DNA of 63,366 nucleotides, counting the filler, from Intoshia linei (Eukaryota; Animalia; Orthonectida), in assembly GCA_001642005.1 (NCBI GenBank). It is 11 parts of 11 records of this genome, joined end to end, with 100 filler letters (N's around TTAATTAATTAA, not from the genome) between each part and the next. Parts side by side here need not be neighbours in the genome. Positions count along the whole stretch, not along the records: positions 13,997 to 23,314 come from LWCA01001384.1; 10 more parts are not named here. One strand, 5' to 3'. The notes beneath the pieces are model-generated. The model was not told the origin of the DNA and did no database searches. It saw only the letters and a list, made by a program, of their open reading frames with translations. Shown here piece after piece: positions 3,823-47,989 of this stretch (within the stretch, counting starts at the first letter, position 1; each line of letters starts with the position of its first letter). Made by a program: the position numbers and the translations under genes.

Positions 3823-6800
3823 TCATATATCGCTAAAATCAAGAATATTTGATATTTTTACAGATTGATGATAATTATTTCTTTTTTGAAAATCACTATT
3901 GACGTGATTTTGTTGTTGAGGCACAGTAGATGCCGTTTCAAACTTGTAATCTAGTATTATCTTTGTTTTAAATTTTTTCCTAAATATTCAATATATCACT
4001 AACCAAAAACTAAAGTATTTAAATCTTCATGTCCACTGACTTGTGTAATTTTTTTAAATATAATAAAAATTGTATTTCTGCGAAAATGCCTGGTCCACCA
4101 AAAGTTATAAAACCAACATTTAGATCAGTGGTTCTCAACTTATTTTTTCTCATTCCCCCCTTGAGCCATTACATTTTTTCACGCACCCCATTTAAATTCT
4201 GTCCATTAGAAATTGAAAATTTTCTATAAAACTAACAGTTAATTAAAATATGTATTAAAAATATTAAAATAGTATTTACAAAAAATATTAGTGAGAATTT
4301 TGAGAAGATTTTTTTTAGTTAATTCCAAAATACGCGACTAAGTCGTAGAAAAAGCACAACGTAAATCATCTTCAACTATTAATCTACTTCTTTTTTGATT
4401 TTTTATACTCAAAAGAGTCGAAAATCCACACTCACATAAATACGTTGATACAAAAGGCAACAGCATTCTGATAGCCTTTTCTCCGATGCTAGGATATGAA
4501 TTACACATCTTTGATCAAAAGTCCGTTATTGAGTTTTCAAAAAATGCATCCTTGGCATGCGAATCATTTATTAATTCCAAAAATTCATCCTGCAATACAT
4601 CAGGAACGTTTTCAACAATCACTATAAACGGATTTCTAATTAAAGTCAGCTCGGATTCATTAAGTTCAGGAAAGTATCGGTTGAATTCACTTTCTAAAGC
4701 TGTCAAGTGTTCCAAAATTTCATTTTTGATCTCATTTGGCAGCATTTCGTTTATAGTATCTAATACAGTTGATAATTTATAAAACATTGCATAATTATGT
4801 AAATTTATTCGCCTTTTCCAGTTTGCTAATTTACACAGAAACGCCTTTAAATGGTCAATAAATTTAATTACATTTGAATTTTTTCCTTGCATTTTTAAAT
4901 TCAGTATATTAAATTGATCGAATATATCAACTAAATAAGCCCAACGCATAACAATGTTTATCTTCCAACAATGCATCAAATTCAACTTTATTTTGTATTT
5001 CAAAGAACTGTTTCAGTTGATCTCTAAGATCGAACACACGCTCAACCATGTTTCCTCTTGATAACCATCTAATATGAGTATGGAATAATAATAAATAATG
5101 AGATGCTTCCATGTTATTACATATATCTTTAAAAATTCTTGATTTAATAGCTCCATTTTTCACATAATTCACAAAATTGATAATGTTACATATCACATTA
5201 TTCAATTGTATTGGTAGCGTTTTGGATACAAGAACTTGACGGTGAATCATACAATGAAGGCTTTTAACACTGGGAGATTTTATTTTTACATACGATTGAA
5301 AACCTGATTTAGAACCTAACATTGCGGGCGCACCATCAGTACAACATCCACATTGTTCCAATGTAAACATTTCGTTTCGAAAAAGGATGAAGTTTTTTCA
5401 AATATATCTATAGCTTTGGTAGTAGTCTCAAGTGAACAAAAAAGAAATTCCTCTTTAAATATTCCCAAATTCACGTATCTCACAAATACTAATAATTGAG
5501 AGCAAGATGCCACATCAGTCGTCTCATCAACTTGAATTGAAAAAAGACCAAATTTTGCAAATTTCAATTCTGAAACAACCTGATTTTTTATATCAATAGA
5601 CATTTCATTTATTCTTCGCTGAACTGTACTATTTGACAGAGAAACGGCTTCAAGTTTCTTTTCTAACCTATTTCCTAAAACCATTTCAACCATTTTAAGA
5701 GCACATTGTTTAATTAAATTTTCTCCAATTGTGTGAGGCTTTTTTTGTTTGGCTATTTGTAATGATACTACATATGATGCTTCAACAACCTTTTTCTTTA
5801 ATTTAAAATATGATCCAGAATCCATTTTTTCCTTTTTTAAATTATGAGTGCCACGTTCAAAATAATCTGTGTCTTTGTTCTTGAATTTGGCATGTACATT
5901 ATTCAGATGTTTCATTTTAGTTGGTTTCATAGAATCATTTGATAGAGTTTTAATACATATTACACATTGAGGGTTTTCAATTCCTTTGTCTATTAAAGAG
6001 ATAAACCCATATTGTATATAAGAATCGTTATATTTTCGTTTTTTTAAATTCATTAATATTTAAGTATAAAAACGTGTCAAATGAATAATAATATAAATAA
6101 TAATAACTGAACGTTTTTCGAAATATATTTTTATGATTTTAATAATTAAGTTTTTAATGTTTTTATCGAATTAAATACACGTGTACATAAAAATAACTCA
6201 TATTACGGAAATTAAAATAATGAAAGATTAGGAAATGTATTTATTTTAGAATATTTTTTACATTCTATAGATTCTATTATACTATTTTATTCTGGGGCGT
6301 CAGACTCAATTTGCTTTGTGGTCCAAATTTAAAATAAGATAACAACATAAAATTTATATAATAACGTGGGTTGCATAATTGGCATTGCTGATATAGAACC
6401 ATAATTATAAATTTAACTTAGATTTATAAATTTTTTAATAATAAATTTCCCCTTCAAAATAGTAAATTTCCCCCCTTTTGAGAACCACTGATTTAGATAT
6501 TTTACAAAAATTATATTTTTTTCATTAATTATAAAATTTACATTACAAATTGCTTTTTCCTTCCATTAATATTGGTTAATTCGTTAATATAAAATAAAAT
6601 ATACAATTTTTACCTTAAAATTGTGTATTTAAACCAGTCCAATAAGTTGTATTTTGCCATTCCTATATTATAATTATACATGTATAATCGGTATATCAAT
6701 CCCTGGGCATCCGTAATACTTTTAACTGTATTATTGGAGACACAAACGTGGATAGGGGCTAGGAGTATTTAACCGGACTACTACTAAAAAGTAATATATG

Positions 6801-8590: not shown

Positions 8591-9850
8591 CAGTGGTGAA
8601 CCTCACATTATCCATTACAATCGGCCTGTTCTCAAATACTCTATAAATCTTATACTTATTTAAAAATTCCAGAAAGAATCTTCGCATAATTTTAATTCTT
8701 GTAAAATTATTATTACTATTTAGAAATCACTTTTAACCTTGTTTTTTTCGTCGAACTTCAAATATTAATCACATTTAGTAGTATTTACTTGAAAATTTAT
8801 ATTCATGAGAAACTCTGTATTACGTATTATATGTATTAAAAAGGTCCATTTGTGGTTTTGACTATGAAGATGTCATGAACATGAAGTTTCTGAGTCTGAC
8901 ATTTAGACAAATGTTTATGACTTTCAATCGTGTCCACAATATTTATGTTTTTTTAAATTTTAGGTTTATTTTATTTTTAATAAAAAATGAGAATTGGGTT
9001 TTTGATCCTGAAAGACTCAATCCAGGAAAATAAAATTTTCGATAATGCATCAATCTCGAAAAATTGTATTAGAAATTGTGTTTTTTGAAATTCTAAGACT
9101 ATTAATTTTTCAAATAAACGGTAACACACACATTAAAAAAAGTAATGTGCAAGGATATAATGGTATATCTGGAAACGTTCACTCTTCGAGGTAGCTACCG
9201 TTTATATCCTAGCATTACAAAACTCTTTGTCTGTGTGTTAACAATTAAAAGTAAAGTGTCCCCTGTATTAAGTACATTTTGCTCTATTTCTGTACATTTT
9301 AATTACAAATTTACAATAGCAATATGAATCAAATACTACATAATTTGATAATGGACCGTACAATGATCAAAATGTAATTTATATACTTGCAAACTGAATT
9401 ATAACAAATAAATACACACGTTTTAAATTTAAAATTTGTAGACCATAAGACTTGAACTAAAATCAGTGTAATATTTTAAAATATGTTAATTAGATAAGAA
9501 CAAGAACATATACTTCACAATACTACACCTCTTTGATCTTGATTAATTAAAGTCAGTTGCAATCGTTTTTCCAATCAATAAATATATCCATTAACTGTCA
9601 ATATAAATAGTTACTGAAATTTATGATACAATCATCCAATGTTAATTTATCCTAAAATTGTTTAATTTGTTTACAAAATTTTGTAACCTATTTCATCACT
9701 TGTGTTTACAAATAATTTGAAACATCTGTGATTTATTTTGTGAATATTTATTACAAAAAAACAATAAAACAAATTTCTATAAACATTCTAAGAATGAATT
9801 AATCCAATTTATAAAAATACAACGTCTCGAAACCTACAGAAAAATCAAAA

Positions 9851-10885
9851 ATGGAAAAATTGGATTTCAATACATGGGCAGAATTTCTAAACAAATTTAT
9901 GAGTCATACATTTCTCGCAATCAAAATTACAATGCCCATATGGATAATTCTCAGTATAACAGGAAACATGATATCAACGTACATTTGGATAGCACTTTAC
10001 CTGAAAAACAAAACTAGTAATTACATATATTATGCCTGCTTCTCATTTTTTTGTCTAATGATTAGCATTCTATACATATTTCAAGAAATTAGTCTACTAT
10101 TTGATATACACTTTTTCTATGAACAAATTTCTTGTAAAATATTTCATTTTCTAAAATCAAGCATTGAACTTTTACCACCATTTCTACTACTAATGTTTAG
10201 TTTTGAACGCTTCGTAGCAATATCATATCCATTCAAACCAATTGCTAAAAAGTTGCAAAAAAGAAGAGTAATTTTTTGCATTTGCTTATTTGCCCTTTTA
10301 GTATGTTTTGCCGTTGGATCCGTTCAATTATACTACTACACATATTACGACAGTATTCGTTCTTGTGGAATCCGTTCCGATTCACTCAAGGAAGGATCCA
10401 TGTCATTTTATTTTATCTGGACTCATACAATAGAAGGAATATTTTTCCTCCTATTACCTTGTATAAATGGATTCAACAACATGTGTTTAATATACAAACT
10501 CAAAAATCAATTCACTAAGCTACCTCAAGAGCAACGGCAATGGAATGCTATTGGTAGTATTCCAATACAAATGACTGTCACACATTTAATAATTTCATTC
10601 TTTTACATTACAACCAATCTAACATCATCAATAGTCTATGTAATACTCTTGTATTATCCCAGTGATTGGCCTTTTGTTAATCTCGATTATGACACAAACG
10701 AACAATGGATATCTTACATTAGAGTAGTTAAAATCAATGTTATTGTTCGGCAAGTTTGCTTTCTCAGGTATGTGGCAAATTTTCTATTGTTTCTTATTTG
10801 CAGCAAAAATTTCAGAAGTTTAGTCTTTTTAAAATTTTGTTTTAACGATTTTGATAAGCCACCAAAAAATAATTTAATTTCATAA
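9851..10885 (+). CDS. Intronless rhodopsin-like (class A) GPCR, peptide-receptor-like
   Basis: 344 aa with seven hydrophobic segments; GN in TM1, CK at the top of TM3, FSFERFVAISYPF (DRY-equivalent), ECL2 Cys, ANFLLF..CSKNFR at TM7/helix 8. Confidence 0.92.
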   Translation: MEKLDFNTWAEFLNKFMSHTFLAIKITMPIWIILSITGNMISTYIWIALYLKNKTSNYIYYACFSFFCLMISILYIFQEISLLFDIHFFYEQISCKIFHFLKSSIELLPPFLLLMFSFERFVAISYPFKPIAKKLQKRRVIFCICLFALLVCFAVGSVQLYYYTYYDSIRSCGIRSDSLKEGSMSFYFIWTHTIEGIFFLLLPCINGFNNMCLIYKLKNQFTKLPQEQRQWNAIGSIPIQMTVTHLIISFFYITTNLTSSIVYVILLYYPSDWPFVNLDYDTNEQWISYIRVVKINVIVRQVCFLRYVANFLLFLICSKNFRSLVFLKFCFNDFDKPPKNNLIS

Positions 10886-12968: not shown

Positions 12969-14785
12969 TAGTGTTCCAATTTAACATTTTTGTTTGAAAT
13001 TCAAAAAGTATTTTTGACTGTATGTCCCATTTTGTATACAATGTAAGATGTCGCTTTTAATTTATAATTTAATCTTAATTTGGTCAGGCGAAGTACGAAA
13101 ATTTTATTTTAAAAAAAAATAATAAATTTAAACGAATATAAGTTTATTTTCATAGATTAAAAGTCAGTATTTTATAATATTAAAAACATAATGTATCTTA
13201 TTGTAGTGTTATATATTAATTTCTCCGATATATTTAGATTTTATTATAACAACATTTTCTTTTAGTTTTGTTACAAACGAAAATGGAATATTGGGTGAAT
13301 TTGTATTAACTTGCAGAACAGTATAAAAAACATGTTTAAGTATAACGTCTAATATATGAAACCGACAACCTTCGTATGTAAAATCTGGCAAAATCTGTTT
13401 CAAATAAGTTATTACACCCTGATGAATACCGGTGTTGGAGCTTTTTCTGTCGAAAATCATCATTGATATTTTATCATTAATATTAAATAACTCCAAGACA
13501 TTTAGTACATTTCAATTACAGTTTTTTTCGATACGTATATTAAGATAAATTTTAACCTCCCAATTTCACATCTTACGGGTCAAAACCCCAGTTGTCCCTC
13601 TTTTTGAAAATCAAGCGAGTTGGAAAATTAAAAAAAATTATATCTTCAGGGCCAAAACCACAAATTCCCCTTCCTTTTTGTTAAAACAGCCCTAGAATTT
13701 AAAAAAAATTACAGGTGGTACAGTTGTATCCTGTTAACACACAAAAAATTTCAATCCGAATAAGTGACGACTTCACGGTCAAAAAAGCATTTAATTCATA
13801 TATTTTTTTCCGAAATATTTTATTAAAACAAAAAATGTGAATTAATTAACAGTCCGAAAATTAAAAAAAAAGATTATTCTGATAGAGCTTATTCCANNNN
13901 NNNNNNNNNNNNNNNNNNNNNNNNNNNNNNNNNNNNNNNNTTAATTAATTAANNNNNNNNNNNNNNNNNNNNNNNNNNNNNNNNNNNNNNNNNNNNACAC
14001 ATATCTTCAGCATGAGAACAAATTAATTCTGCATTTGTGTGTGATATATCAAATAATTTATCCATAAGAGTAATAAAATTTTCTTCACGGAGTATTTGAG
14101 AATGGGATCGTCTATTTTTATTTTTTTTTAATAGGCTATAGTTGGCAGTATTTCTTTAACTTATTTATTATATGGTTTTTATGTTTAATCGGAATAGTAC
14201 TAGTACTCCACAAATCCATAACCTTCATTACAGTTAAATTAACAATTCCAGAGAACAAATACGTTTTATTGTTATTATTAACATGATAAAAATAAACCTT
14301 CAATACATCTCTCATTGTCGGAAAATTATAGCAAGCAAAATCTTTCATAACATACCCAATTAACCATATATTGTCTTTGGATCTTGTTGGTAACATTAAA
14401 TGGTAAATTAATTTTGTAAAGTAAATAAATTTTTAGATGACAATAATAAAAATATCAATTTATCTGTAATTTACTATTTCATTTAATAAAAACTATTTAA
14501 TATCACGCTGACTCCTAAAATTTGGTATACAGATACGTATGAATGATAAAAATATAATTATTGATTGTTATATTACGATAACATTTTATTATAATCATAA
14601 CGTTCATCAAAATCAAAAAAACTCAACTTTTAGTATATTTCCCGCCCTTGAGCACCACTATAACATTATGGTAGACTTGTAAAATTTCGTACAGATGTAT
14701 AAATGAATGAAACGAACAAAATTTTCACTTGTCCCTCCAGAAAATCTGAAAATAATTATTTACTATGAAAAATATGTCCACCCTA
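12969..14785 (-). mobile_element. Internally deleted hATm-type transposon, interrupted by a Helitron piece and a gap
   Basis: 5' end TAGGGTGGACATA at 14785 (minus). N-terminal ORF 14396-14136 (FPTMRDVLKVYFY...DLWSTSTIPIK) and core ORF 13496-13209 (SSNTGIHQGV, GCRFHILD). Flanks atattcag / atatacag match 7 of 8 (candidate TSD). Confidence 0.75.
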
Positions 14786-14789
14786 ATAT

Positions 14790-15074
14790 ACAGATTCAAT
14801 TTACAGCACAATCTAAAATGAAAAAACAATCAGGTTAACATTCTCCAGAAAATTCTCTGTAACAGTTTACCTGAGACTCTTAAAATCCGAAGCTTCAATA
14901 ATTAAAAATTGGGAATATAACAATGGTAGAATATACGGGATTTGGGATTGTTCTTCTTCTTATGCTGATCAACTAAGGACTCGTTCCTTAGGAAAGCCAC
15001 TATTAGGAATAATAGTTCCTCATCCTTATGAAATGTTTTCGTGTTTAACTTCATTCAAAGAATGTTCACATTAT
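14790..15074 (+). pseudogene. Endogenous viral element: Rhabdoviridae-like (Mononegavirales) L protein fragment, start of capping (PRNTase) domain
   Basis: Frame from 14790 reads TDSIYSTI*NEKTIRLTFSRKFSVTVYLRLLKSEASIIKNWEYNNGRIYGIWDCSSSYADQLRTRSLGKPLLGIIVPHPYEMFSCLTSFKECSHY. This is colinear with vesiculovirus L as I recall it ([22 protein letters not shown]...IVRSEVSSL...[34 protein letters not shown]...CAPC). One in-frame stop. Confidence 0.9.
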
Positions 15075-15270
15075 ATATTATTATTAAGAAAAACATGAAA
15101 ATAAAGTTGAATTTAGCTATTTTTGTTAACTAGTTAATTGAGCAACGCAACATCGTTACTGGCTTTTTTGAAAAACTGTTTTTAACATCGTGATCTGCAT
15201 TCAAAAATACACCCCACCTAGCTACTCAGTCTTTCCAATTGTGAAAATTTAAAAACGATGTGACACCCTA

Positions 15271-16197
15271 AGATCATTAAAAGAAATGTATTTTTTCCAA
15301 GAATATTTGAAAAGGTACAAGATTTTGTTCGAAATTGCGAATCCTGTCATCTATCGAAAATTCAGAATCATAAGCTGTATAAGCATCTAAAAACTGTTGA
15401 AATTAATAATTTTAATGATTTATGGTAAGTAAATGTTTTAGAACCTTTTACTACAAGCATTAAAAGAAAAAAAAATCATTTCAATGATAGATCACTTTAG
15501 CTGTTTGCCGGAGTTAGTGGCAGTTTAAGATATTACAACAGAGACAATTATTAAAGCAATTTTGGAACATATAATAACACGTTACGGTCCACCGAAACAA
15601 CTCCAGACAGATCAAGGAACACAGTTTACAAGTTCATTGATGAACAAATTATGTAGTCATTTGGACATAACACAAACATTTGCGAAAGCATATGTTCATT
15701 CAAAAATTGAAATGGTTGAAAGAGGAAATCGCACAATCCGCGAAAAATTAAGAATTTTATGCAAAGATTTTTCTCAATGGGACACTCACCTGCACTCAAT
15801 CATGGCAAGTCTCAGGTTCTCTCCTACATCTCGCAATAATCTATCCCGTTTGGAAATTATTCACAATTTCACCTCCCTTGTGGATAAGAATAAAAATAAA
15901 ACAAAGTTGGACCATTTAAAAAAATCATTGATTTCATTCAGAAAAAAATATCTAAAGAACATGACAAGTAATTACAACAAACGCGTTAAAAAAAATTTTC
16001 GCCACGATATTGACTATATGCCCAATCAACCGGTTACCTCTAAAGAACGATACCCCCACCGGAAACGTTCTCACCCCTCCCTCCTCATTCTTAACTTATT
16101 TCGGAGGTGTGGCGTTTCTATAGTATCACAATAAAAGATAGATAAAGTTATTATAAACAAAGTACAAGAATAACGATAATCACATTTATATACCACG
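15271..16197 (+). mobile_element. Ty3/gypsy integrase remnant with possible short 3' LTR
   Basis: VRNCESCH zinc motif at ~15330, MIDHFS, ITRYGPPKQLQTDQGTQFTS, VERGNRTI, WDTHL. Purine patch cggagg then TGTGG...CCACG (16108-16197). Confidence 0.85.
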
Positions 16198-16250
16198 AGC
16201 TTTATTATTAAAATAAATTTCTTCCTATACATTTATACTTTAAAATACAA

Positions 16251-16745
16251 TTGATATTCCTCTTTTATCTGGATATCACTACACAAAATAATGAAGATCA
16301 ACCTCTTTGTGTAGTATGCAATGAAATTTTAGCAAACGAAAGTATGAAGCCCTTAAAACTAAAAAGACATTTGAATTCAAAGCATGCTATGTACGCTGAT
16401 AAACCTATTGAATTTTTTGAAAGAAAATTAGAATCATTTGAAAAGCAAAAATCGTTGTTTGAAACAGGTGTACCAACAAGAAAAATTTTTATTAGCATCT
16501 TATGAGGCATCGTATTATATTTCCAAAACGAGTAAGCCATTTACTATCGGTGAAGAATTTGTTTTACCATTAGCGATTAGAATAAATGAGATTATTTTCG
16601 GACAAAGTTACACTAACGAATTAAAAAAATTCCACTTTCAAATGGCACTGTTAGAAGAAGGATTGCACATATCAGCAAAAATCAGTTGGATCAACTCATA
16701 TTGAGAGGGTTTAAAATTCGAAATTTCCAATTCAGCTGGACGTGA
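16251..16745 (+). mobile_element. hAT (Buster-type) transposase 5' remnant
   Basis: PLCVVCNEILANESMKPLKLKRHL BED finger; ASYEASYYISKTSKPFTIGEEFVLP; frameshifted. Confidence 0.9.
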
Positions 16746-17547
16746 AATTAACGTGAAAGCGAAAAAGTACCCAAAAATGTGCTGGACTCCATAACCAAAT
16801 TTTCCAAAATCGGGGTTATCCTTACGTATATAATATGCAATATTTGTTTAAATGCTGTTTGTACGTAGTACATAACAGTATGTATAGTCAACCTAGTTCT
16901 GTATAATCTATTGGAACTGGTCCAATTAAATTAAGGTGATATTGAAAAATTTAAATTAATCTATTTATTACATTTTTAAGAATTTGCTGCTGTACATTAT
17001 TTTTATAATTCAAAAATTTGTTGAAAATTCTGCAAAATTGCAACCATTGAATTTATTTTAACAAGGTATTGATAAACTTAAATTTAGTGTACTTTACAAC
17101 ACATATACAAAGATGTATTGATACCAGTCGAGAATTTTACAAAAATTTTATGGGTCAGGACAATCATACTTATATTATTGAAGATTTCATGTGTATTTAA
17201 AGAAAGTAAGGAATAACAATTAACTCTTTTACTTCATTAGGGTCTCAAAAGCTGCAAATAAACTAATTTTGATCAACTTTAAATAATAACTTGTTCTTTA
17301 TCATTGAATAGTGAACAATTTCAAAAAATGGGTTTATATTGTTCCATATCTACAATTCACACTGTATAAAGATAGGTTTTTTCGATCACGATTTATATAA
17401 ACAGTTTAGTTACAGAAAAACTTAACAATACCAAATGTTGACTACAAGTTGGTGAAATTCTATTTTCCTCCCAATGTAGATGTTTAAAATCGAATTTTAA
17501 ACATAAATTATTTATCGGAGGGATTTACTGTATGATGTGTTCATTAC

Positions 17548-19290
17548 CTTTTCATGGATAAGTTTAGCTATAGATACAAAAATAGTTTCAACATTGATAT
17601 TATCTTTTGCACTAGTTTCATAAAAATGCATTCCATTGGATTTGGCAAACTAAAGTACATAATTATATGGTGCATATCAGTGGTTCCTATTTTCTATACA
17701 ACTACGCAGCCCTACATACTGGGTTGTATAAAACTGTACATAACTTTTACCGTTGTAGAGTAGAATATATCATAAAGATACTCTGATAAATCTTGTTTCT
17801 GAGGGCTATTTTTGTAATTTTCAACTAACCTTATAATAATTTCCTAGTATAATGCACATTGAAAATACATTGATAATTTCGCGATTTTTAAATGAATGTG
17901 AAAAAAATTAAAATACGGGTGTCTACTTAAATTCAACCATTTTTACTAAAAATCAAAATTTACCAACCCTTAAGTGACAATCCACTTTTACAAACCCCTA
18001 AATTAAAATTTCAATTTTATCAACCCTAAAAGAAAAAATTTAGTTTTAACAACCCTTTAGAATATTTAAATATATAACAACAATTTAAATAATAAAAAAT
18101 AGCAATTTTTTAAGTTTTTAACGAAGATCCAAAGAATAATTTAATTATTACTTTTCTACAGTTTTATAAATTGTATATAATACAGTTATGGATTTTTCCA
18201 TAAGGGTTGGTAAAACTGGAATTTTCCTTTTAGGGTAGGTAAAATGGAAATTTTAATTTAGGGGTTTGAAATTTTCCCTAAAAAGTTGTTAAAACTGAAT
18301 TTTTTTTTTTAGGGTTGGTAAAACTGGAATTTTCCTTTTAGGGCAGGTCCAACTAGATTTTTCGTTTAAGGGTTGGCTGATTGTGTTATATATGTATAAT
18401 ATAGATAAAATAAAAAATACATGGTCAGCTGCTGATTTTGAAACAACTCGTTTTGATTCAAGGTCACATTTATTGCCAATTAAGTATTTTATAACATCTC
18501 CTCTAGCCAACTAATTATCATAAATTATACAAATTACATATTTTATAGAATAAATCAATGTACAATAACAGCGTCTTGTAAAAGTCCAATGAAATGAAAT
18601 TAAAATGAATAATTCTAGTTTTTCGGTGATGTCAACAAAAACGCTATTTATAAAATTTTCAAAAGTGCCACTACAAATGTACAAAGATTTTATTCGAAAA
18701 TTTTTTCGATATAATAGTTAATATTTAATACGGGTGACTTTGAAAAAAAGTTGATAAGATATGAATAGTTAAATTTAATTTTTTGCTAAAAAAGCAATTT
18801 AAAACTTGAATGAAAATCAAAATTAACCAGATATTTTCATTATAATAAAATGTAAGTTAAATATAATACGTCGTCAACTTGTTGAGCCCATCGATTAATG
18901 TTTTGAAAAGATTTAAGGTCGGTAATGTCATACATTAAAAAAATTCCAGTAGCTCCACGGTAATATAGAGTAGTGATTGTGTGAAATCTTTCTTGACCTG
19001 CAGTATCCCTAAAATGAGTTAAAAGTAACTACAATTAGATAAAATATAATTAAAAATTACCAGACTTGAAGTTTGATTAATTTACCATAAAAATCAATAT
19101 TTTTAGTTTTGAAATCGATACCTAAAAAAAATGTAAAAATCAGTAAAAAATAGCAAAAACCTATTGTTGATATAAAAGTTGGATTAAAGACACCATCAGT
19201 AAATCTTGCCATAATGCAAGATTTACCTACACCTGAATCTCCAATTATCAAAATTTTAAAAGTTGGATCTTTCTTGTTAGCTATAGTCAT
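17548..19290 (-). CDS. RAB10: Rab8/10/13-family small GTPase, closest to Rab10; five exons seen, C-terminal prenylation exon not resolved
   Basis: Exons 19290-19161 ([14 protein letters not shown]), 19121-~19061 (IDFK...LQVW), ~18949-18871 ([22 protein letters not shown]), ~18510-18421 (GNKCD), ~17649-17548 ([13 protein letters not shown]). FHTITT is the Rab10-like signature. Confidence 0.88.
17915..18380. repeat. ~29-30-bp minisatellite arrays (tagggttggtaaaactggaattttccttt) in inverted orientation inside a Rab intron; related arrays at 8246-8330, 21860-22105 and degenerate at 32500-32790
   Basis: Tandem units are visible on plus (18190-18377) and as reverse complement (17940-18060). Confidence 0.85.
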
Positions 19291-19472
19291 AGATTGCGTT
19301 TTAATTTTTGTAAATATGAAATAAAATTTAGTAAACTAGTTCTTTATTTAACCGATATTTAATTTAAATTAATTTCGAACGCAACCAATCAATTCAATTT
19401 AATCGTTACTTTATTGATAAAAATTGAAATTAATTTTTAATTTCATCAAAATAATAAATATAGTATTTTTAA
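19291..19472. promoter_or_regulatory. Putative bidirectional promoter between Rab and AQR
   Basis: Divergent ATGs only 182 bp apart; CCAAT at 19385. Confidence 0.55.
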
Positions 19473-21379
19473 ATGGTGTTGAAAAATCAGGTTAGCGAAG
19501 AAAAAGATTTTTTGAAATATTCCAAGGATAATTGGACCAACAGAAACAAATTTAATATTGATGTAGTTAAAAAGGTGTATTCTCAATACACGAAAACCAA
19601 GAGTAGTCATTTTTTGTATTATTTAGACATTTCGCGATATTTAGATAATTATTTATGGGTAAATTATGAAAATTACAAAAATTGTGCAATCATGCATTTA
19701 TCTATAGTTTTAATGTTGAATGAAAGGTGTAAGGAGAGATTGAACCCTTGGAAATTTTTGAAACAAAATGAGAATATGGATCAATTTATTCAAAATGTCA
19801 TGATTCTAAGTTTGAACGCAAATAAACCCTTTTCAAATTTACACAATTCTGATGATTCGGATAATTTTTTGTTATTCAACATTTCATGTTTTGAGAGAGT
19901 TTTATTGATAAAATTTTTCATCAACATTTATAATTGCTTGGAAATTGAAAGTATTCATAAAGTTTTAAAAGATACCTGGTCTCTACACACATGGAATGTT
20001 TTGACGGATGATTCACGATTGAAACTATTCAAATTTATCCCAAAATGCAGTAAATATTGGAAATTGATTAAAAAAAAAGAAAAATCTATGGACAAATCTC
20101 AATTAAAAATTTACACTTTTAAATATTCATTCTTGTATAATCACATCAAATTGTTTTTACATTTTTTGTACAATTTCGACAAACAAAATCTACATTACAT
20201 ATTTCGATTTTTAGAATTCTTGATTGATTTGTCTTCTCAATTAGTTATTCGAAGATTTTTCTTACCAATTTTAGAAAAATCTAACATTCTCGTATACTGT
20301 AAACAATCACAATTATACAAAAATACCGACAAGGATTCCACTTTATTTACTCAACTCTTGAATATTTTGGAATATTATATATTCTTTGAAATGGATAATT
20401 TTACTGGAGAACCGCTGTCCAAATCAAAATTAGTTCAAATTCATTACGAAAAATTATACAATTTTCAAAAAATTGGCTATAAACATTTCCCAATGTTGAA
20501 AAAAATTTCTTTAAAACCTGTGTGTTCCATTGATGATGCAGAAATTATACGTTCAAATGTTGGAAATTTATCATGTAATGATTTAAATGATTTGTGTCAA
20601 AAATTAAATATTTTCGTATATTTTGACGAAAAACTTTTACAATTATTCAATACTCTTATCAAAACTGATTCAACCCAATTAGAATCAGATGATTCTGATT
20701 CAAATACCCTCTCTACGTTTTATACAGACACGATTATTCAAAAATTGATGCGCAGAAAATATCAGATAGACATTATTAATGCTATTCCATTGTATCCTAC
20801 AGAAAATGAAATTTGGGATATGAATATTGTGCCAGATAATTACTCTGATTCTTGTTTAGCATTACCAAAATTAAATCTTAGATATTTAACAGTGACTGAT
20901 TATTTATTGCGCAATTTTAATCTTTTTCGATTGGAGGCTATTTATGAAATTAGACAGGATATTGAAAACGTATCTTTTAGAATGAAACCTTATCAAAGTG
21001 AAGACGGAAAGTGCCATTTTGGCGGATGGGCGAGAATGGCACAACCTATATCATATATGAATATTATTGAAATTGCTAAACCGAAAATTGGTGAGTATTG
21101 TCCTTCTAGAGTTAGAATGGATGTTACCATTACTTTTTCAAATACTGATATACAGAAAGAATGGGAGAGTTTGAGAAATCACGACATTTGTTTTCTTATT
21201 TCTTATAAACCTGTTAATCAATCAACTTTTAATTATGATCGGAAAACTCCGTTTTTAGACCAATTTCAATTTACAGCTATTAGAGGCGCTGAAGTGCAAT
21301 CTATGCTTGACGAAAACGGCGACATTATTGAAGATTATCACAAACCTCACAAATTAACTGGTGGAATAAGAACTTTTAG
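19473..21379 (+). CDS. AQR: Aquarius / intron-binding protein 160 RNA helicase, large first exon (helicase exons not found)
   Basis: SRYLDNYLW, FEMDNFTGEPL, PLYPTENEIWD, CLALPKLNL..LT..DYLLRNFNLFRLE, FGGWARMAQPI, IRGAEV; donor tttag|gtattt at 21379/80. Confidence 0.96.
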
Positions 21380-22418
21380 GTATTTTATTAATTTATACAA
21401 ATTTTAAATTTACTATTTTCTATTTTCTAAAAAAATATTCAAAAAAAAACTTATTTCTGGGAAGTTTCAAAATTGAATGTATATTTATTATTTGCTTGTA
21501 TAAATTTGCATGCTGTGTGTCATTATTTTATTATTTCAAAAAAAAGCAATATAAATTTTATTTTCAGAAATTGAGATTTTTACGGTCGAAAACGCAAATT
21601 GTTATTTTATGGTCAAATTCAAATCGAACAAAGCTTGTTGGTTATGCACTTTGTACAAAAATGTAGCTACCTTGGCCTTGGGAAATCTTTTTCGGATATA
21701 TTTTTTACACATTGTTAACTCTGTCAATTATTTCAGGTTTTACTAGCCAAAAAATTAAATTATTAATGATTACATTTTACAATATTTTCCAGATTAAAAT
21801 TTAATTAATGGGCTAATTTAATTAAATTAATTTTCTAAAAATCAAATTTTAACAATCCTTTAGGGAAAAATTTATTTTTAGTTTCCTAAAGGGTTGGTAA
21901 AACTGGATTATTCCCTTAATCGGTTGAAAACTGGAATTTTCCTTAATGGTTAATAAAAATAGTTTTTTCATTTTAAGGTTGGTAAAAGTGGATTTTTCCC
22001 TTAAGGATTAATAAAACTAAATTTTTCCTTTTAAGGTTGGTACAACTGGAATTTTCCCTTAAAGATTGTAAAAGTGATTTTTTAGTAAATATGGTCGGAT
22101 TTAAGAATGTTATCTGATTATCAAAAATTAAATTTGAAATTAAAATACTTAATTATAAATTATTGACAATATTTTCTACACAGCTCGCCAACTCTATAAC
22201 TCGCCATTAATTTAAAATATAAACTAAAAGTTATAAACCCATTTTTCAAAACTAGTTAAGTTATTTTTTATTAAATTTTCAATTTGTATTACAATTTACA
22301 TTTTATTGCAATATAACCTTTAATTTAAAGGTTTTCTACTACTTCCTACTGTTTCTATAGTTTTAAATTCTATATCTCGCCAACTTTTTTTAAATCCCAA
22401 AAATGGCTAGTTATAGAG

Positions 22419-26810: not shown

Positions 26811-26918
26811 TGTACATTNNNNNNNNNNNNNNNNNNNNNNNNNNNNNNNNNNNNNNNNNNNNTTAATTAATTAANNNNNNNNNNNNNNNNNNNNNNNNNN
26901 NNNNNNNNNNNNNNNNNN

Positions 26919-29178
26919 ATATTGAAGAACATAAAACACACTTGGAAGAGGTGTTCAAAAGATTGAAAATTGTTAATCTCACGATAAAACCAGAAGAATC
27001 CAACATTACCGCAAAAGAATTAAAATTTCTCGGAAATATTATATCCGCGGCAAGAATACAGATAGACCCTGATAAAACTATAGCTATAAAGAATTTAAGT
27101 ATTCCTAAAACTGTTAAACAGCTAAGAAGATTTATGGGTGCCTGCAACTATCATCGAGGATTCATAAAGGAATACTCTAAAGATGAAACGATCTTGACTG
27201 AACTTCTTAAGAAAAACGTAAAGTATATATGGAACTCAGAAAGAGATTTAGCCTTTCATAATTTAAAAAACAAATTAATGTAAGCACCAATACTTGCGTT
27301 GCCTGATACAGATAAATGTTATACACTAGAAACCGACGCCTCACAACATAGTATTGGAGCAGTCCTGAAACAGGGTGATAATTTTATTGAATATTCTAGA
27401 AAATTGCTCAACACCACGAGAAAAAGTACTCCACAGTCAATAAAGAATTATTAGCTGCAGTATGGGCTATGAAAAACTATCGTCATTACCTACTAGGAAA
27501 ACATTTTATGGTCATAACAGACCACCAACCTTTGATCAATATATTCAAATAAAATAACTTAACCGACAAACAATTCAGGTGGATAGAACAAACTCAAGAA
27601 TTCGACGATACCATATCATACATANACGATCTTGACTGAACTTCTAAAGAAAAACGTAAAGTATATATGGAACTCAGAAACAGATTTAGCCTTTAATAAT
27701 TCAAAGAACAAATTAATGTCAGCACCAATCCTTGGTTTGCCTGATACGGATAAATTTTATACACTATATTCAAATCAAATAACTTAACCGACAAACAATT
27801 CAGGTGGATAGAACAAACTCAAGAATTCGACTTTACCATATCATACATACCGGGCGAAACTAATGTAATGGCCGATATCCTCTCTAGAGATGTAGAAAAT
27901 ATAGACAAAATCAATGCAATGAAAGTTCATAATTATGATAACTTTGATATCAGAGAACAACAAAAATCTAACGTTTCATGTCAACAATTATATCACTCAT
28001 TAAAACATAACAAAAAATTACCCTCTAAGTACAAATATTCTTTAAAGCACTATACAATAATTGAAAACACTTTAATCTTTAATCAAAATAACATAAAAAG
28101 GAAACTAGTACCTGATCTACTTATATTAACAATGTTAAACTATTTTCACAATTCAAAACTAAACGTGCACCCAGGAATTACTGCTACCTATCAAAATATT
28201 TCAAAGTACTATTTTTGGCCCAATATTTACAGGGATGTTCATAATTACGTATCCAAATTTCACAAATGTAACATATCCAAAACCGGCAAGCGTCGTCATA
28301 CTTCGAAACTTAAGAAAATAAAAACCAACGAATTTGGTGAATTGTGGTTATTGGACCTACTTGGTCTGCTCCCTGAAACATCCGAACAGTACAAGTACAT
28401 TTTAACTATGATAGACCACTTCACTGGGTGGCCAGAAGCAGTCCCACTGAGGGATATTACAACTTATTCGGTTGCCAGGGAAATTGTGGATAGAGTCATT
28501 GTACAACACGGAATACCAGCAGCCATTCACACTGATAATGGAACACAGTTTGTGTCCTTAGTTAAAGAAATATGCAATTTATGTGGAATAAAACAGTCGA
28601 CATGCTCGGCGTATGATCACAAAAGTACTGGTTTAATAGAGCGTCTCCGCATTACCACTAACCCAAAATTTAATGACTGGGACACACAATTACCGTTTAT
28701 CTTAATTTGAGGTTAATATTAATACTTTGAGGAAAACTAAATCCTCTAAAACTGGAAAATCTCCATACAATATTATACATGGAAATATCATGAAAGATAA
28801 TAACCATAATCTTAACCCAATAAAACTTGGTATTCTAATGTCTGATGCAAAGAAACATGCCTATAAGCATCATTACAGAGTTAAAAATAATTATGATAAA
28901 AAGGTTCCAATTTACAAATTATATCACACTACTAATTGCAAAATTAATCATCCTATATTATCAAAAAAGCAACCTCAATACGTACTCAAAGAACCTCGTC
29001 CTTGTAAACCTCCAAATTACTTAAATGACTATGTTCTGAATTAACTCCCATTCTTGGAGGGGGACAAGTAACATAGTTACACTAATAAACTTCAATCTCC
29101 ATACACACAATATATTATTAACTAAATATTAAGAACAAAATTTCATTAAATACTCAATATATTTGGCGTTATATTACT
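26919..29178 (+). mobile_element. Ty3/gypsy LTR retrotransposon, 3' part (RT end, RNase H, integrase, PPT, 3' LTR), disrupted
   Basis: [71 protein letters not shown] ggagggggaca (~29056-29066), then candidate LTR AGTAACATA...TATATTACT at 29067-29178. Confidence 0.93.
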
Positions 29179-40565: not shown

Positions 40566-40983
40566 ATCTAGATACTTTGACTACTTTGTTTATCAGTTCT
40601 CACTAAAAATTAATCCACCATCTTGGATGATTTATATTAAAAAATATAATTGTAGCGTCAATAATATACAAAAATTGAAAACATAATTATTATATCAATC
40701 TACTAATTAACCTGATTAAGATAATACAATTATCTAAATTTTTCTTCTTTTTTATAAATCTATATATCGATTATAAACGATATATAACATTTTAAACGTA
40801 TTTATATTATAAATATCATAATATTTATATATGGTATATATTCTTGTATTGTATATACTTGAATATTTCATCAACGGTTAAATTCAATTAGTTTAAACGA
40901 AACTATACTTTTAATTATAATTTAAGCATTTCTTAATATTACTTGAATATTAATATAATACTACAATTTGATGAATACATGAA

Positions 40984-41449
40984 ATGACGAATTTGTCAGA
41001 AATTTCACATTATGATATTCATTTGGTTGTCACAAGTTGGAATGCTCTCATAGGGAATGAGGAATATTCAATGCTTTATTTGAAATATCTATTGCAAATG
41101 AACCCGGGCCTTCAAAAAGTATTTAAAAAATTTGATAATGTCCCAATTGAAAATTTGCAAGACAATGATTTTGCGATACACCAAGCTCATTCTACATGGA
41201 AAGCTATTTCAAAAGGAATATCATATATCGGTAATGGTGAAATTGATGCTGCAAACAATGAATTGAATAATTTCATCACTTATCATCAAAATATTCAAGG
41301 ATTTGAAGGGAAAATGTTTGAGGTTTTTATTCTTACGAGTTATTTAGTTTTTATTGAATATTATTCTGGATTGTCGGATTTTTAGGGATGACACAGAAAC
41401 ATTTGAATTTTTCGTAATTGGTAACATAACAAAGTTACATCATAAATAA
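40984..41449 (+). CDS. Globin (exons 40984-41322 and 41348-41449; 146 aa)
   Basis: A-helix VVTSW, C2 Pro and CD1 Phe (NPGLQKVFKKF), F8 His (ITYHQNI), G5 Phe (KMFE). A phase-0 25-nt GT-AG intron at the G7.0 position gives a canonical-length globin. Confidence 0.85.
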
Positions 41450-42646
41450 TGGTTGATTAATTGAGATGGTATATTTTTGTGGGGAAAGTGCGACCTTTAA
41501 TAGAACAATTGATTTACTTGAAAAATGTGAATTATTTTTCATTTAATTTTATTTATATTATTACAATATATGTTCATGCATGTTCAATAGGGTGTGCACT
41601 TTTGACATTTTTTTTGAATTTCAAAAAGTATATTTGAGTGCAGATACATTATGTTATTTAGAACACAATGACAAAAAAAAAATTGAAAACGGTCGTAATT
41701 TTCAAAGGCAAAAAATTTGTACTTTGAAGTTTATTTTATTTAAATAATTTTACAATTATTAATATAAATTATTTATTTATATATTATTGTTANNNNNNNN
41801 NNNNNNNNNNNNNNNNNNNNNNNNNNNNNNNNNNNNTTAATTAATTAANNNNNNNNNNNNNNNNNNNNNNNNNNNNNNNNNNNNNNNNNNNNAAAACATT
41901 TAAATGACCATATTATACCTTGGTCACAGGGTTGTAGAGTAGATGTAGTGTTTGCACGTATATTTATTGTGTTATGGTGTATTTAATCCATTAAATACAT
42001 TTTCATTGAAAGCAATTATAATATTTTGTTCATTTTTTTTTATGTCACTGACGGTAGATGATGAGAGATTATACTTATCACAAATGTAGCTTTGTTTGAA
42101 CTTTTTGAAATTATCAAAAATTTTTTGTTTAACACATAATGATATTTTTTTTCTTTTTAATTTTGAATGATAATAAAATTTATAAATGTCAATATAGATG
42201 AAGGTGATATTAAAATGATATTGGATAACTTAAAATTTATGATTAATTAACAATTAAGCTTTATATTTAATTTTTTTTATTAACGGAATTTTTGTTTCAT
42301 ACAAAATTGTTAACAAGAAAATCGATTCCGTTATAATGGACTTAGACTGTATTGTCATTTGAAACAGTTTTTATGTCAATATTATATGATGAACATTGTA
42401 GAATATATTTTAAATTGAATATTTACCAGCACTTTGATTCTTTAAAATATTTTCTATCTAGCTATTTGAATTCCCACACTTCAAAACTTATAAACTGTTT
42501 CTTAAGATATAAATGTGAAGTATTTTTTAATAAATAGGAACCTCTTTTTAAGATATAAGTGTGAAGTATTTTTATTAATTTGGGGGCCTTTTTTAATGAG
42601 TGGCCCTGGGGTACAGCCCATATTGCCCATGCCTTAAAACGGCTCT

Positions 42647-44059: not shown

Positions 44060-44614
44060 TTTTTTTTTAATATAATAATGATTTATTGAAGTAAGCAATT
44101 TGCTTGGATACAATATATATTGCTTTATGGAATAGTTTTTTTAAAATTAACTTTTGTGGTTTGCTTTTTGAAAACTGTTGAGGATTTGAGTGATGTAATT
44201 GCTTTGGGTAGTTGGTTCCAGTGGTTCGTTATTCGGTTGTAGAAGGAATTTTTTTGGAGGTTTGTCGCAAATCGTTTTTTAAATATTTTTCCATTTTGTC
44301 GGGTTGTTGTGTAGTTAAATTGGATAGGTGAGATTATGTTTGAATTTAGTATTTTATAGATGAGGTTGAGGTCCATGAGTGATCTTCTATGTTGAAGTGA
44401 CATATTAGAACGGAATAGATTTTTTTTGTTTACAGATTCGAGACGTTTTATATTTTTCTTTTTTGATGGATTCCAAACTTGGCTCGCGTATTCGATTTTT
44501 GGTAAAATAAATAATTTAAACAGAGGAAGTAAATATTTGGGGTATCGCAAGGCAATAGTTTTTTTAATTCTGAATGTCTCAATTTTAGCAGCACGCACAA
44601 CGCGTTCAATGTGT
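44060..44614 (-). mobile_element. Non-LTR retrotransposon (CR1/L2-group LINE) 3' end
   Basis: LFKLFILPKIEYASQVWNP...LESV, DLNLIYKI, SFYNRITNHWNQLP; 3' tail aataaatcattattatatt-poly(A). Confidence 0.9.
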
Positions 44615-46630: not shown

Positions 46631-47060
46631 ATTTATGTGCGATATATCGAACAATTTATCAATTGTATTAATGAAATTATCCTCGCGGAATATTTGGGAC
46701 TTACATCTACTATTTTTATTTTTTTTTAATAAATTATAGCGTTCGCAGTATATCTTTAATAGAAATTGAACTTTTAATCCACAAATCTAACACTTTCATC
46801 ACAGTTATATTCAAAACTTGAAAAACCCCATATTCCTTTTTTCTATGATAAAAATAAATATACGTCCCGTAATGTTGGGAAGTTATATTTACAAAAATCT
46901 TCCATCACATTGCGTATTATCCAAATATAATCCGCGTATCTTGTTAACAAGTGCATTTCAAATAAAACTTTATAATTTAAATTAATAAAGCTCAATTTGA
47001 GCACTACGTTAAAATTAATCTTGCTTCCTAAAATTTTGCATAGACATACGTATGAATATG
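46631..47060 (-). mobile_element. hATm-type 5' remnant
   Basis: Homologous to 14136-14540 (DFCKYNFPTLRD...TVMKVLDLWIK; shared cctaaaattt.g.ata.a.atacgtatgaat). Confidence 0.7.
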
Positions 47061-47989
47061 AAGAATAAAATTAGATAATAGCTCATCAGAGAATATTAGT
47101 GAATAAATATATATGACATGATATGACCATTCATTCCAATTTTTTGATTAAAATGTCTAATTTTAAAGTTCGGTCTGGGATCTACTATATAACTAACTTA
47201 AATAATAATAATAAAGTTAATTTAAATCGTTAATTAGATTAAATTTAAGGCACGTAAAAATTATTAACGTTATTCAGTGAAACTTCCCTTCATTTTGATA
47301 AAATGTTTACGTTTTATAATAATAATAATAAATGATCGATAATGAATAATATTATAATTTAATTTTATTGTCAAAAAAGGAGTACATATTCATTTTGGGC
47401 ATATCTGGAAAAATTTCAATATCTCAATATATCAAATAATCAGTATCTGATTCTTCAGAGAATCCGAAGAAAATTTTTCGAAAAATTAATAAAAAGTGAA
47501 TCAGCCTTTTCTCCGGTCAGAGACACACAAAATAAAACTGTTATCCTCTCCTTTTTTGTTTTACTACAAATATTACAATTTCAGAAGTTGCTTAAGTTTT
47601 TTTAGATCCCCGTTTATAGTATAATCCAGTTTAGTCATAATTCCATACATCGTCTGGCTTATTTTAAGAAATTTTCTTTTTATTATATTATTCGAAAAAG
47701 AATTTGGAACGTTTATTAAGAGATACAGTTAGAAAAAAGTGATTTTTAGAAATGACTCAATACTGACGTAAAAAATAGAAATTTTGGCCCATATAATACT
47801 GGTTATAATTTTAATTAGTTGTAACAAAGTTTCTGTTTATATTTACGTAAGATTTTTCGAATAAACCGCTATTATCACATTGAAAGTATTTGCTATCACA
47901 TCGCTTGGAATTGTTATCACATGGAAAATCGTTATTCGATTTTGAGTTTAGCTATTATCCGATCGGTTGTAATTACTATCATATGAATA

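Follow-up and report, generated by a model that had tools for sequence, protein, structure and literature searches.

A decayed rhabdovirus L gene fragment between two hATm-type transposon ends in likely orthonectid (Intoshia linei) DNA

The locus and its repetitive surroundings

The window, a stretch of 63,366 nucleotides of Intoshia linei DNA analysed as a whole, consists of contigs joined between 8019 and 46630 by ten spacers of 100 bases each, in which two runs of 44 N enclose a short linker with stop codons in every frame. GC content along the window is 22-33%. The fragment under study sits on the gap-free contig at 13997-23314, together with a Rab-like gene and Aquarius (Table 1). Six sequencing runs from two studies contain part of 13997-16100, and all of them were compared. 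X1 is a DNA-type run of 2016 and perhaps the source of the assembly, X6 comes from the same sample as X1, and X2 is a 2024 run of another sample from another study.

Aquarius displays 35-40% identity to each of the 120 matches listed, a divergence as expected of a fast-evolving lineage. None of the listed matches is named Intoshia, and the host assignment draws on the viral paralog described below and on the style of the genome. Introns in the run contigs measure 34-45 bases; the genome of I. linei is described as reduced, with small introns (PMC6736024). Between 16671 and 17600, contigs of X2, X3 and X4 contain plus-strand GT..AG joints of 34-45 bases, which converge on the Rab-like gene of the minus strand, at its last exon, in a region where no long ORF was seen. 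Elsewhere in the window, Pfam matches mark an intron-free frame of a rhodopsin-family receptor (9815-10885, plus strand) and a globin exon (40975-41385, plus strand).

Table 1. Features on the contig that carries the viral fragment, in window coordinates
Feature	Position	Strand	Basis
Left flank: multicopy hATm-type DNA transposon, decayed minus-strand coding region	14033..14785	-	X1 depth, loose ends, paralog
Probable target site (8 bases) of the left element, coinciding in part with the first viral codons	14786..14793	+	inference
Decayed rhabdovirus L gene fragment	14787..15074	+	Pfam PF14318, PDB L chains, tblastn and profile limits
Premature stop codon	14814..14816	+	translation; no other letter there in runs X1 and X2, both covering
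PRNTase motif A, two invariant positions substituted (codons 14988, 15012)	14976..15020	+	comparison with 21 relatives
Zinc-binding CxxC remnant, second site substituted	15063..15074	+	comparison with relatives
Right flank: second multicopy element of hATm type, terminal 188 bases	15083..15270	.	loose ends, depth, motif position
Decayed gypsy-type integrase, zinc-finger part cut by the right element	15271..15900 (right limit approximate)	+	Pfam, tblastx
Remnant of another transposase, hAT type	16212..16704	+	sub-threshold Pfam match to the Spin-doc zinc finger (E 7.6e-4); tblastx match at 5574-5978 (E 8e-19)
Rab-like GTPase (exons)	17512-19335	-	Pfam Ras, exon frames
Aquarius gene	from 19473 (both host genes within 17512..21407)	+	Pfam Aquarius, exon frames

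Transposons of the hATm type have termini TAGGGTG...CACCCTA and target-site duplications of 8-9 bases (PMC6004678). One such terminus is found on each flank of the viral piece, each element being visible from one side: the left element ends in CACCCTA at 14779-14785 and the right element in CACCCTA at 15264-15270, with the inner side of the right element joined to the viral piece. The depth of X1 is about 80-500 on the left flank and about 110-230 on the right flank, versus 7.4 on the viral piece, and loose contig ends occur at 14785 and 14792, before 15083/15085, and behind 15263-15275. A paralog of the left element is present at 46631-47078 (tblastx E 6e-31), and the left ORF gave no Pfam family and no Atlas match at 0.9 or more. 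At their loose ends, other copies of the left element continue with similar 8-mers that have a central TA. Since the 8 bases following the left element resemble those of the other copies and overlap viral codons, the viral sequence is likely where this element inserted; the far end of the element, where the matching duplicate would be, lies beyond the contig end at 13997. Another interpretation, in which CACCCTAA, common to 14779 and 15264, is the duplicated target site of a 477-base insert, was rejected, as these are multicopy transposon termini. Further hATm-like terminal words with similar neighbouring bases at 2200-2206 and 41588-41594 indicate that an hATm-like family is spread through the scaffold. 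Part of the right repeat (15131-15263) is also found inside a 2232-base X2 contig at a depth of about 3800, with a similar depth in X4, and so is a transposon-derived piece within a very abundant sequence.

The gypsy-type integrase beyond the right element lies 196 bases from the viral piece. Its match to Pfam rve falls just under the cut-off (E 1.9e-7), and it resembles the integrase at 28393-28557 (tblastx E 4e-12). An X2 contig matches gypsy from 15268 and continues upstream in other sequence. Because the right element cuts the integrase at 15271 and the X2 gypsy contig continues elsewhere, gypsy is a neighbour of the viral piece and is not directly joined to it. The transposase remnant at 16212-16704 we take to be hAT Buster/SPIN-like. 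Remnants of a gypsy-type reverse transcriptase and integrase are found by Pfam at 26867-28710 (plus strand), and a frame at 44125-44614 (minus strand), which has no Pfam match, presumably resembles the end of a LINE reverse transcriptase. These gypsy-type and LINE-like remnants are candidate sources of reverse transcriptase in this genome. A decayed hAT-like transposase in three frames occupies 4515-6059 (minus strand), and a PRANC match within it (E 0.0033, under cut-off) is probably due to chance.

Identity and decay of the viral piece

In the mRNA sense of L, 14787-15074 comprises the end of the polymerase domain and the start of the capping (PRNTase) domain, which amounts to about 290 bases, or about 96 of 2100 codons. 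Translation of 14790-15074 on the plus strand gives exactly the 95 codons of an earlier sequence-only reading, with a single stop. Tblastn with 35 of the 37 protein matches and the L profile place the limits of homology at 14787-15071, one codon to the left of the start given in that reading. Its claim of a rhabdovirus-like L identity holds: the 93-codon frame after the stop gives a significant Mononegavirales L match (Pfam PF14318, Mononeg_mRNAcap, E 3.7e-7, 30.3 bits against a cut-off of 22.2), the PDB matches are L chains only, and an L-like protein of Intoshia linei is nearest.

Among 177,635 PDB sequences, the only matches at E<=1 are 6ueb_A (E 5.1e-9, 78 residues without gaps), which we take to be rabies L, and 5a22_A, the L of VSV (E 2.8e-6). 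This preference is informative because a full-length rhabdovirus L matches 28 sequences in the same set, many of them presumably L proteins of other families. Against a profile of 21 full-length L proteins the fragment scores 85.0 bits, the reversed fragment -4.3 and the best shuffle 3.5 (525 scored of 1000 made), a control that is partly circular since the profile was built from matches of the same query. Judged by these scores, the L homology is far beyond chance. Within the window, a second L piece was not found, the best values elsewhere being E 0.24 (tblastn) and 0.039 (profile).

The fragment has 37 matches among 1.84 billion representative proteins. The 30 that were looked up include one Intoshia linei protein, 16 named viruses, one false match and 12 entries without a name. 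By name, UniProt code or ICTV genus, 15 of the 16 named viruses are labelled rhabdoviruses and none is labelled another family; the remaining one, Lantra virus, has no family label. Two candidates, P0125 (a repeat protein) and P0126 (a Clostridium pilin), were dropped as false matches and left out of later work. On these comparisons, 14787-15074 is confirmed as a decayed piece of a rhabdovirus L gene.

The piece is visibly broken. PRNTase motif A (as defined in PMC4705655), which the sequence-only reading had recognized, is present, with the residues at 14976, 15006 and 15018 being those of 21 of 21 relatives. The full motif A pattern is matched by 19 of the 21 relatives and by the second Intoshia linei protein described below, but not by the window copy. 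Four points of decay had been named: the stop, the two motif A substitutions (14988, 15012) and the one at 15072. They turn out to be real departures, as the window states at 14814, 14988, 15012 and 15072 are common to none of the 21 relatives. Conservation of these columns is 21/21 at 14988 and at 15012, 15/21 at 15072, and only 11/21 at the stop. The first Cys of the CxxC remnant is common to 18 of the 21 relatives; zinc sites of L are described in PMC6636387. The window copy keeps 18 of the 22 columns that are at least 90% conserved, and no frameshift was seen in the L fragment. A stop together with three substituted conserved sites is decay unlike that of a live virus.

The PF14318 match spans only profile positions 1-38 of 241, whereas a functional PRNTase domain comprises motifs A-E over about 250 residues. 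Motifs B-E are absent from the fragment and, reading on in frame from the stop, no ATG occurs before 15033, so no capping protein is possible. The fragment is likely inert today.

Integration, history and rival explanations

Genomic integration, as claimed from the sequence alone, is borne out by contigs of X1 and X2 that run from the fragment into host repeats. In each of these runs a single contig spans 14792-15081, extending over 14761-15112 in X1 and over 14741-15094 in X2, and X6 covers 14839-14996. Runs X3 (organism B), X4 and X5 have no cover on the fragment, an absence that proves nothing for X3 and X4. The X1 contig has a depth of 7.4, and the unique host stretch at 17260-17600 one of 8.4. 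Both X1 and X2 retain the stop and both differ from the window at one synonymous site, 14837. The same fragment sequence is thereby present in two samples and two studies of organism A, of which X2 alone is independent, since X1 may be the source of the assembly. With a bridging rule of 31 letters, the left junction is crossed in X2, where the contig extends 45 letters into the left repeat, while the right one is not, the contigs extending 30 letters in X1, one short of the rule, and 12 in X2. A contig leading from the viral piece through to the host genes is present in none of the six runs. Taken together, the fragment is most likely genomic.

We hold with considerable confidence that the locus contains part of a rhabdovirus L gene, 290 bases long and broken, between two hATm-type ends in likely orthonectid (Intoshia) DNA, a fragment that likely arose by germ-line reverse transcription of viral RNA and is likely inert. 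It likely records an old germ-line infection. No poly(A) tail is visible at the viral piece, and neither junction bears the mark of any particular reverse transcriptase. The sequence-only reading held that the reverse transcriptase of a host retroelement must have made the cDNA; we infer such an origin at most, as the piece joins DNA-transposon ends.

Four events would account for the present arrangement, in an order that we infer. A host reverse transcriptase of gypsy or LINE type, remnants of both being found in the window, may have copied an internal part of L RNA. The cDNA would then have been joined into or beside an hATm element already sitting in the gypsy integrase gene. Insertion of a second hATm element into the viral sequence at 14786 would have cut off the upstream part, and neutral decay would have added the stop and the substitutions.

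The closest relative of the window copy is OAF68635.1 (A3Q56_03634, a hypothetical protein of Intoshia linei, here P0121), with 58 of 81 residues identical (72%) and 103 bits versus 50.5 for the next match. It is located on a 28.4-kb contig, and its automatic UniRef name is 'Mononegavirales mRNA-capping domain-containing protein'. P0121 represents the same L stretch and is sister to the window copy in both trees, but it reaches 34 residues further upstream, ends earlier and keeps the full motif A. The host thus likely carries at least two such fossils; a protein search for a third copy found none, with one match among 152 candidates.

Instead of separate integrations, the two copies might represent one insertion that was later duplicated by an hATm element that had captured it. 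In favor of this, the two copies span one and the same small part of a protein of 2100 residues, their clade is tight and has a long stem, and in the window copy the viral piece adjoins the inner side of an hATm end. However, no second copy at >=80% DNA identity is present in X1, X2, X5 and X6, and the protein search did not yield a third. The pair differs at 3 of 21 near-invariant versus 17 of 50 variable columns, so that the substitutions lean towards divergence in the virus, not significantly for the split used (Fisher p 0.21). We regard such a capture and duplication as a real possibility, albeit not the one that we favor.

A different function can be envisaged: the fragment might have been retained, or put to use, to supply antiviral small RNAs, being transcribed together with the surrounding nested transposon cluster. 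It does lie within nested transposon remnants, and arthropod EVEs give rise to piRNAs. In addition, X2 contains the fragment with its left junction, and this run looks like an RNA run because it shows spliced GT..AG joints nearby. Yet X2 is not on record as RNA, its contigs give neither strand nor level, and the visible decay bears no sign of selection on the protein, which makes a retained role of this kind unlikely.

An artefact, either a chimeric join with a contaminant or a fossil from the parasite's own host animal, is very unlikely. The repeats on either side are multicopy, and assemblies misjoin at such places; the fragment lies 0.8 kb from the contig end, and parasite samples can carry host DNA. 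Nevertheless, a stop and lost motifs are not what an RNA virus that still replicates would have, and such a virus would be missing from a DNA-type run. Moreover, a contig with the same junction is found again in a second study, its X1 depth is like that of unique sequence, and other members of the flanking repeat families are present in the window.

Donor virus and relation to known fossils

Apart from the Intoshia linei record, the window copy is 34-43% identical to the 16 named viruses, in agreement with the earlier suggestion of a probably undescribed virus. By its L, the donor is nearest to rhabdoviruses (15 of the 16 named viral matches are labelled so). Rhabdoviruses have the gene order N-P-M-G-L with conserved signals at the gene junctions; the fragment represents an internal piece of L, and junction signal words were not found in 14701-15300. 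It is highly improbable that the L sequence came from a mononegavirus outside the rhabdoviruses, or that the likeness arose by chance: the fragment is short, its Pfam family is order-wide and the trees have no outgroup from another family, but 15 of the 16 named viral matches are labelled rhabdoviruses with none from another family, and the fragment matches 2 PDB sequences against 28 for a full-length rhabdovirus L.

Two L trees were computed, as had been proposed as a check, with references chosen by this query. The window copy and P0121 form the only clade that is starred in both trees (100/96 with 23 rows, 100/99 with 33 rows), on a long stem. Both trees group this pair with Beihai dimarhabdovirus 1 and Himastelon rhabdovirus 1, with unstarred support of 88/86 and 82/85 on 138 columns and long branches. 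These two viruses are placed in Betaplatrhavirus by ICTV (PMC12451637), a genus of viruses of parasitic flatworms or worm-infested animals (PMC12451637, PMC9241645). Grouping the pair with Xinzhou and Tahe viruses instead is not rejected by the AU test (p 0.27). For both copies, the highest blastp score among 21 full-length L proteins is likewise that of Beihai dimarhabdovirus 1, although identity to the two Betaplatrhavirus members is only 38-39%. The pair may thus be joined, weakly, to the flatworm Betaplatrhavirus.

On a more far-reaching reading, the phylum Orthonectida would here gain its first recorded virus, from a rhabdovirus lineage that is still undescribed. This lineage would be related to the flatworm-parasite Betaplatrhavirus clade near the base of the lyssaviruses and would have entered the Intoshia germ line at least twice, which would suggest that unrelated parasitic worms with marine invertebrate hosts in common have exchanged viruses. 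We consider this reading doubtful. Parasitic worms have been proposed as a hub of rhabdovirus host shifts (PMC9241645), and if the weak Betaplatrhavirus link is true, the fragment bears on that proposal.

Rhabdovirus fossils are established in animal genomes and are known from many arthropod genomes (PMC5014481). Like those of arthropods, the fragment is a rhabdovirus gene piece in nuclear DNA, with a stop codon and among transposable elements. It differs from them in its likely orthonectid host and in its immediate flanks, which are hATm DNA-transposon ends. Arthropod EVEs are usually associated with LTR retrotransposons. The sequence-only reading had called the piece a non-retroviral integrated RNA virus sequence, and the homology, the join to host sequence and the decay are all found; on these features, the fragment belongs to the known rhabdovirus EVEs. 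What is unusual is the likely orthonectid host, the class of fossil itself being already known. The finding extends the rhabdovirus host range, by fossil evidence, to a likely orthonectid and leaves the view of how such fossils form unchanged.

In the literature searched, with most subscription journals outside its scope, no report of an orthonectid virus or of Intoshia with a rhabdovirus was found. Neither 'Intoshia' nor 'Orthonectida' was found in one supplement of PMC10101049. A survey of 31 phyla that includes Orthonectida (10.1101/2023.11.03.565523, PMC11097642) names this phylum in its text passages only for the host tree, but might list rhabdovirus reads.

Searches for further relatives added little. 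A word-seeded search of longer proteins passed 0 of 47 candidates, which is weak evidence, and a scan of IMG/VR confirmed 0 of 10 stretches. In a metagenome scan with P0121, 2 of 257 stretches passed; both were dropped, neither scoring E<=1 against the L profile. Two further matches, P0124 and P0147, are unnamed L-protein fragments from ENA whose contigs, at 22 kb and 61 kb, exceed most rhabdovirus genomes in length; they are probably fossils in other hosts.
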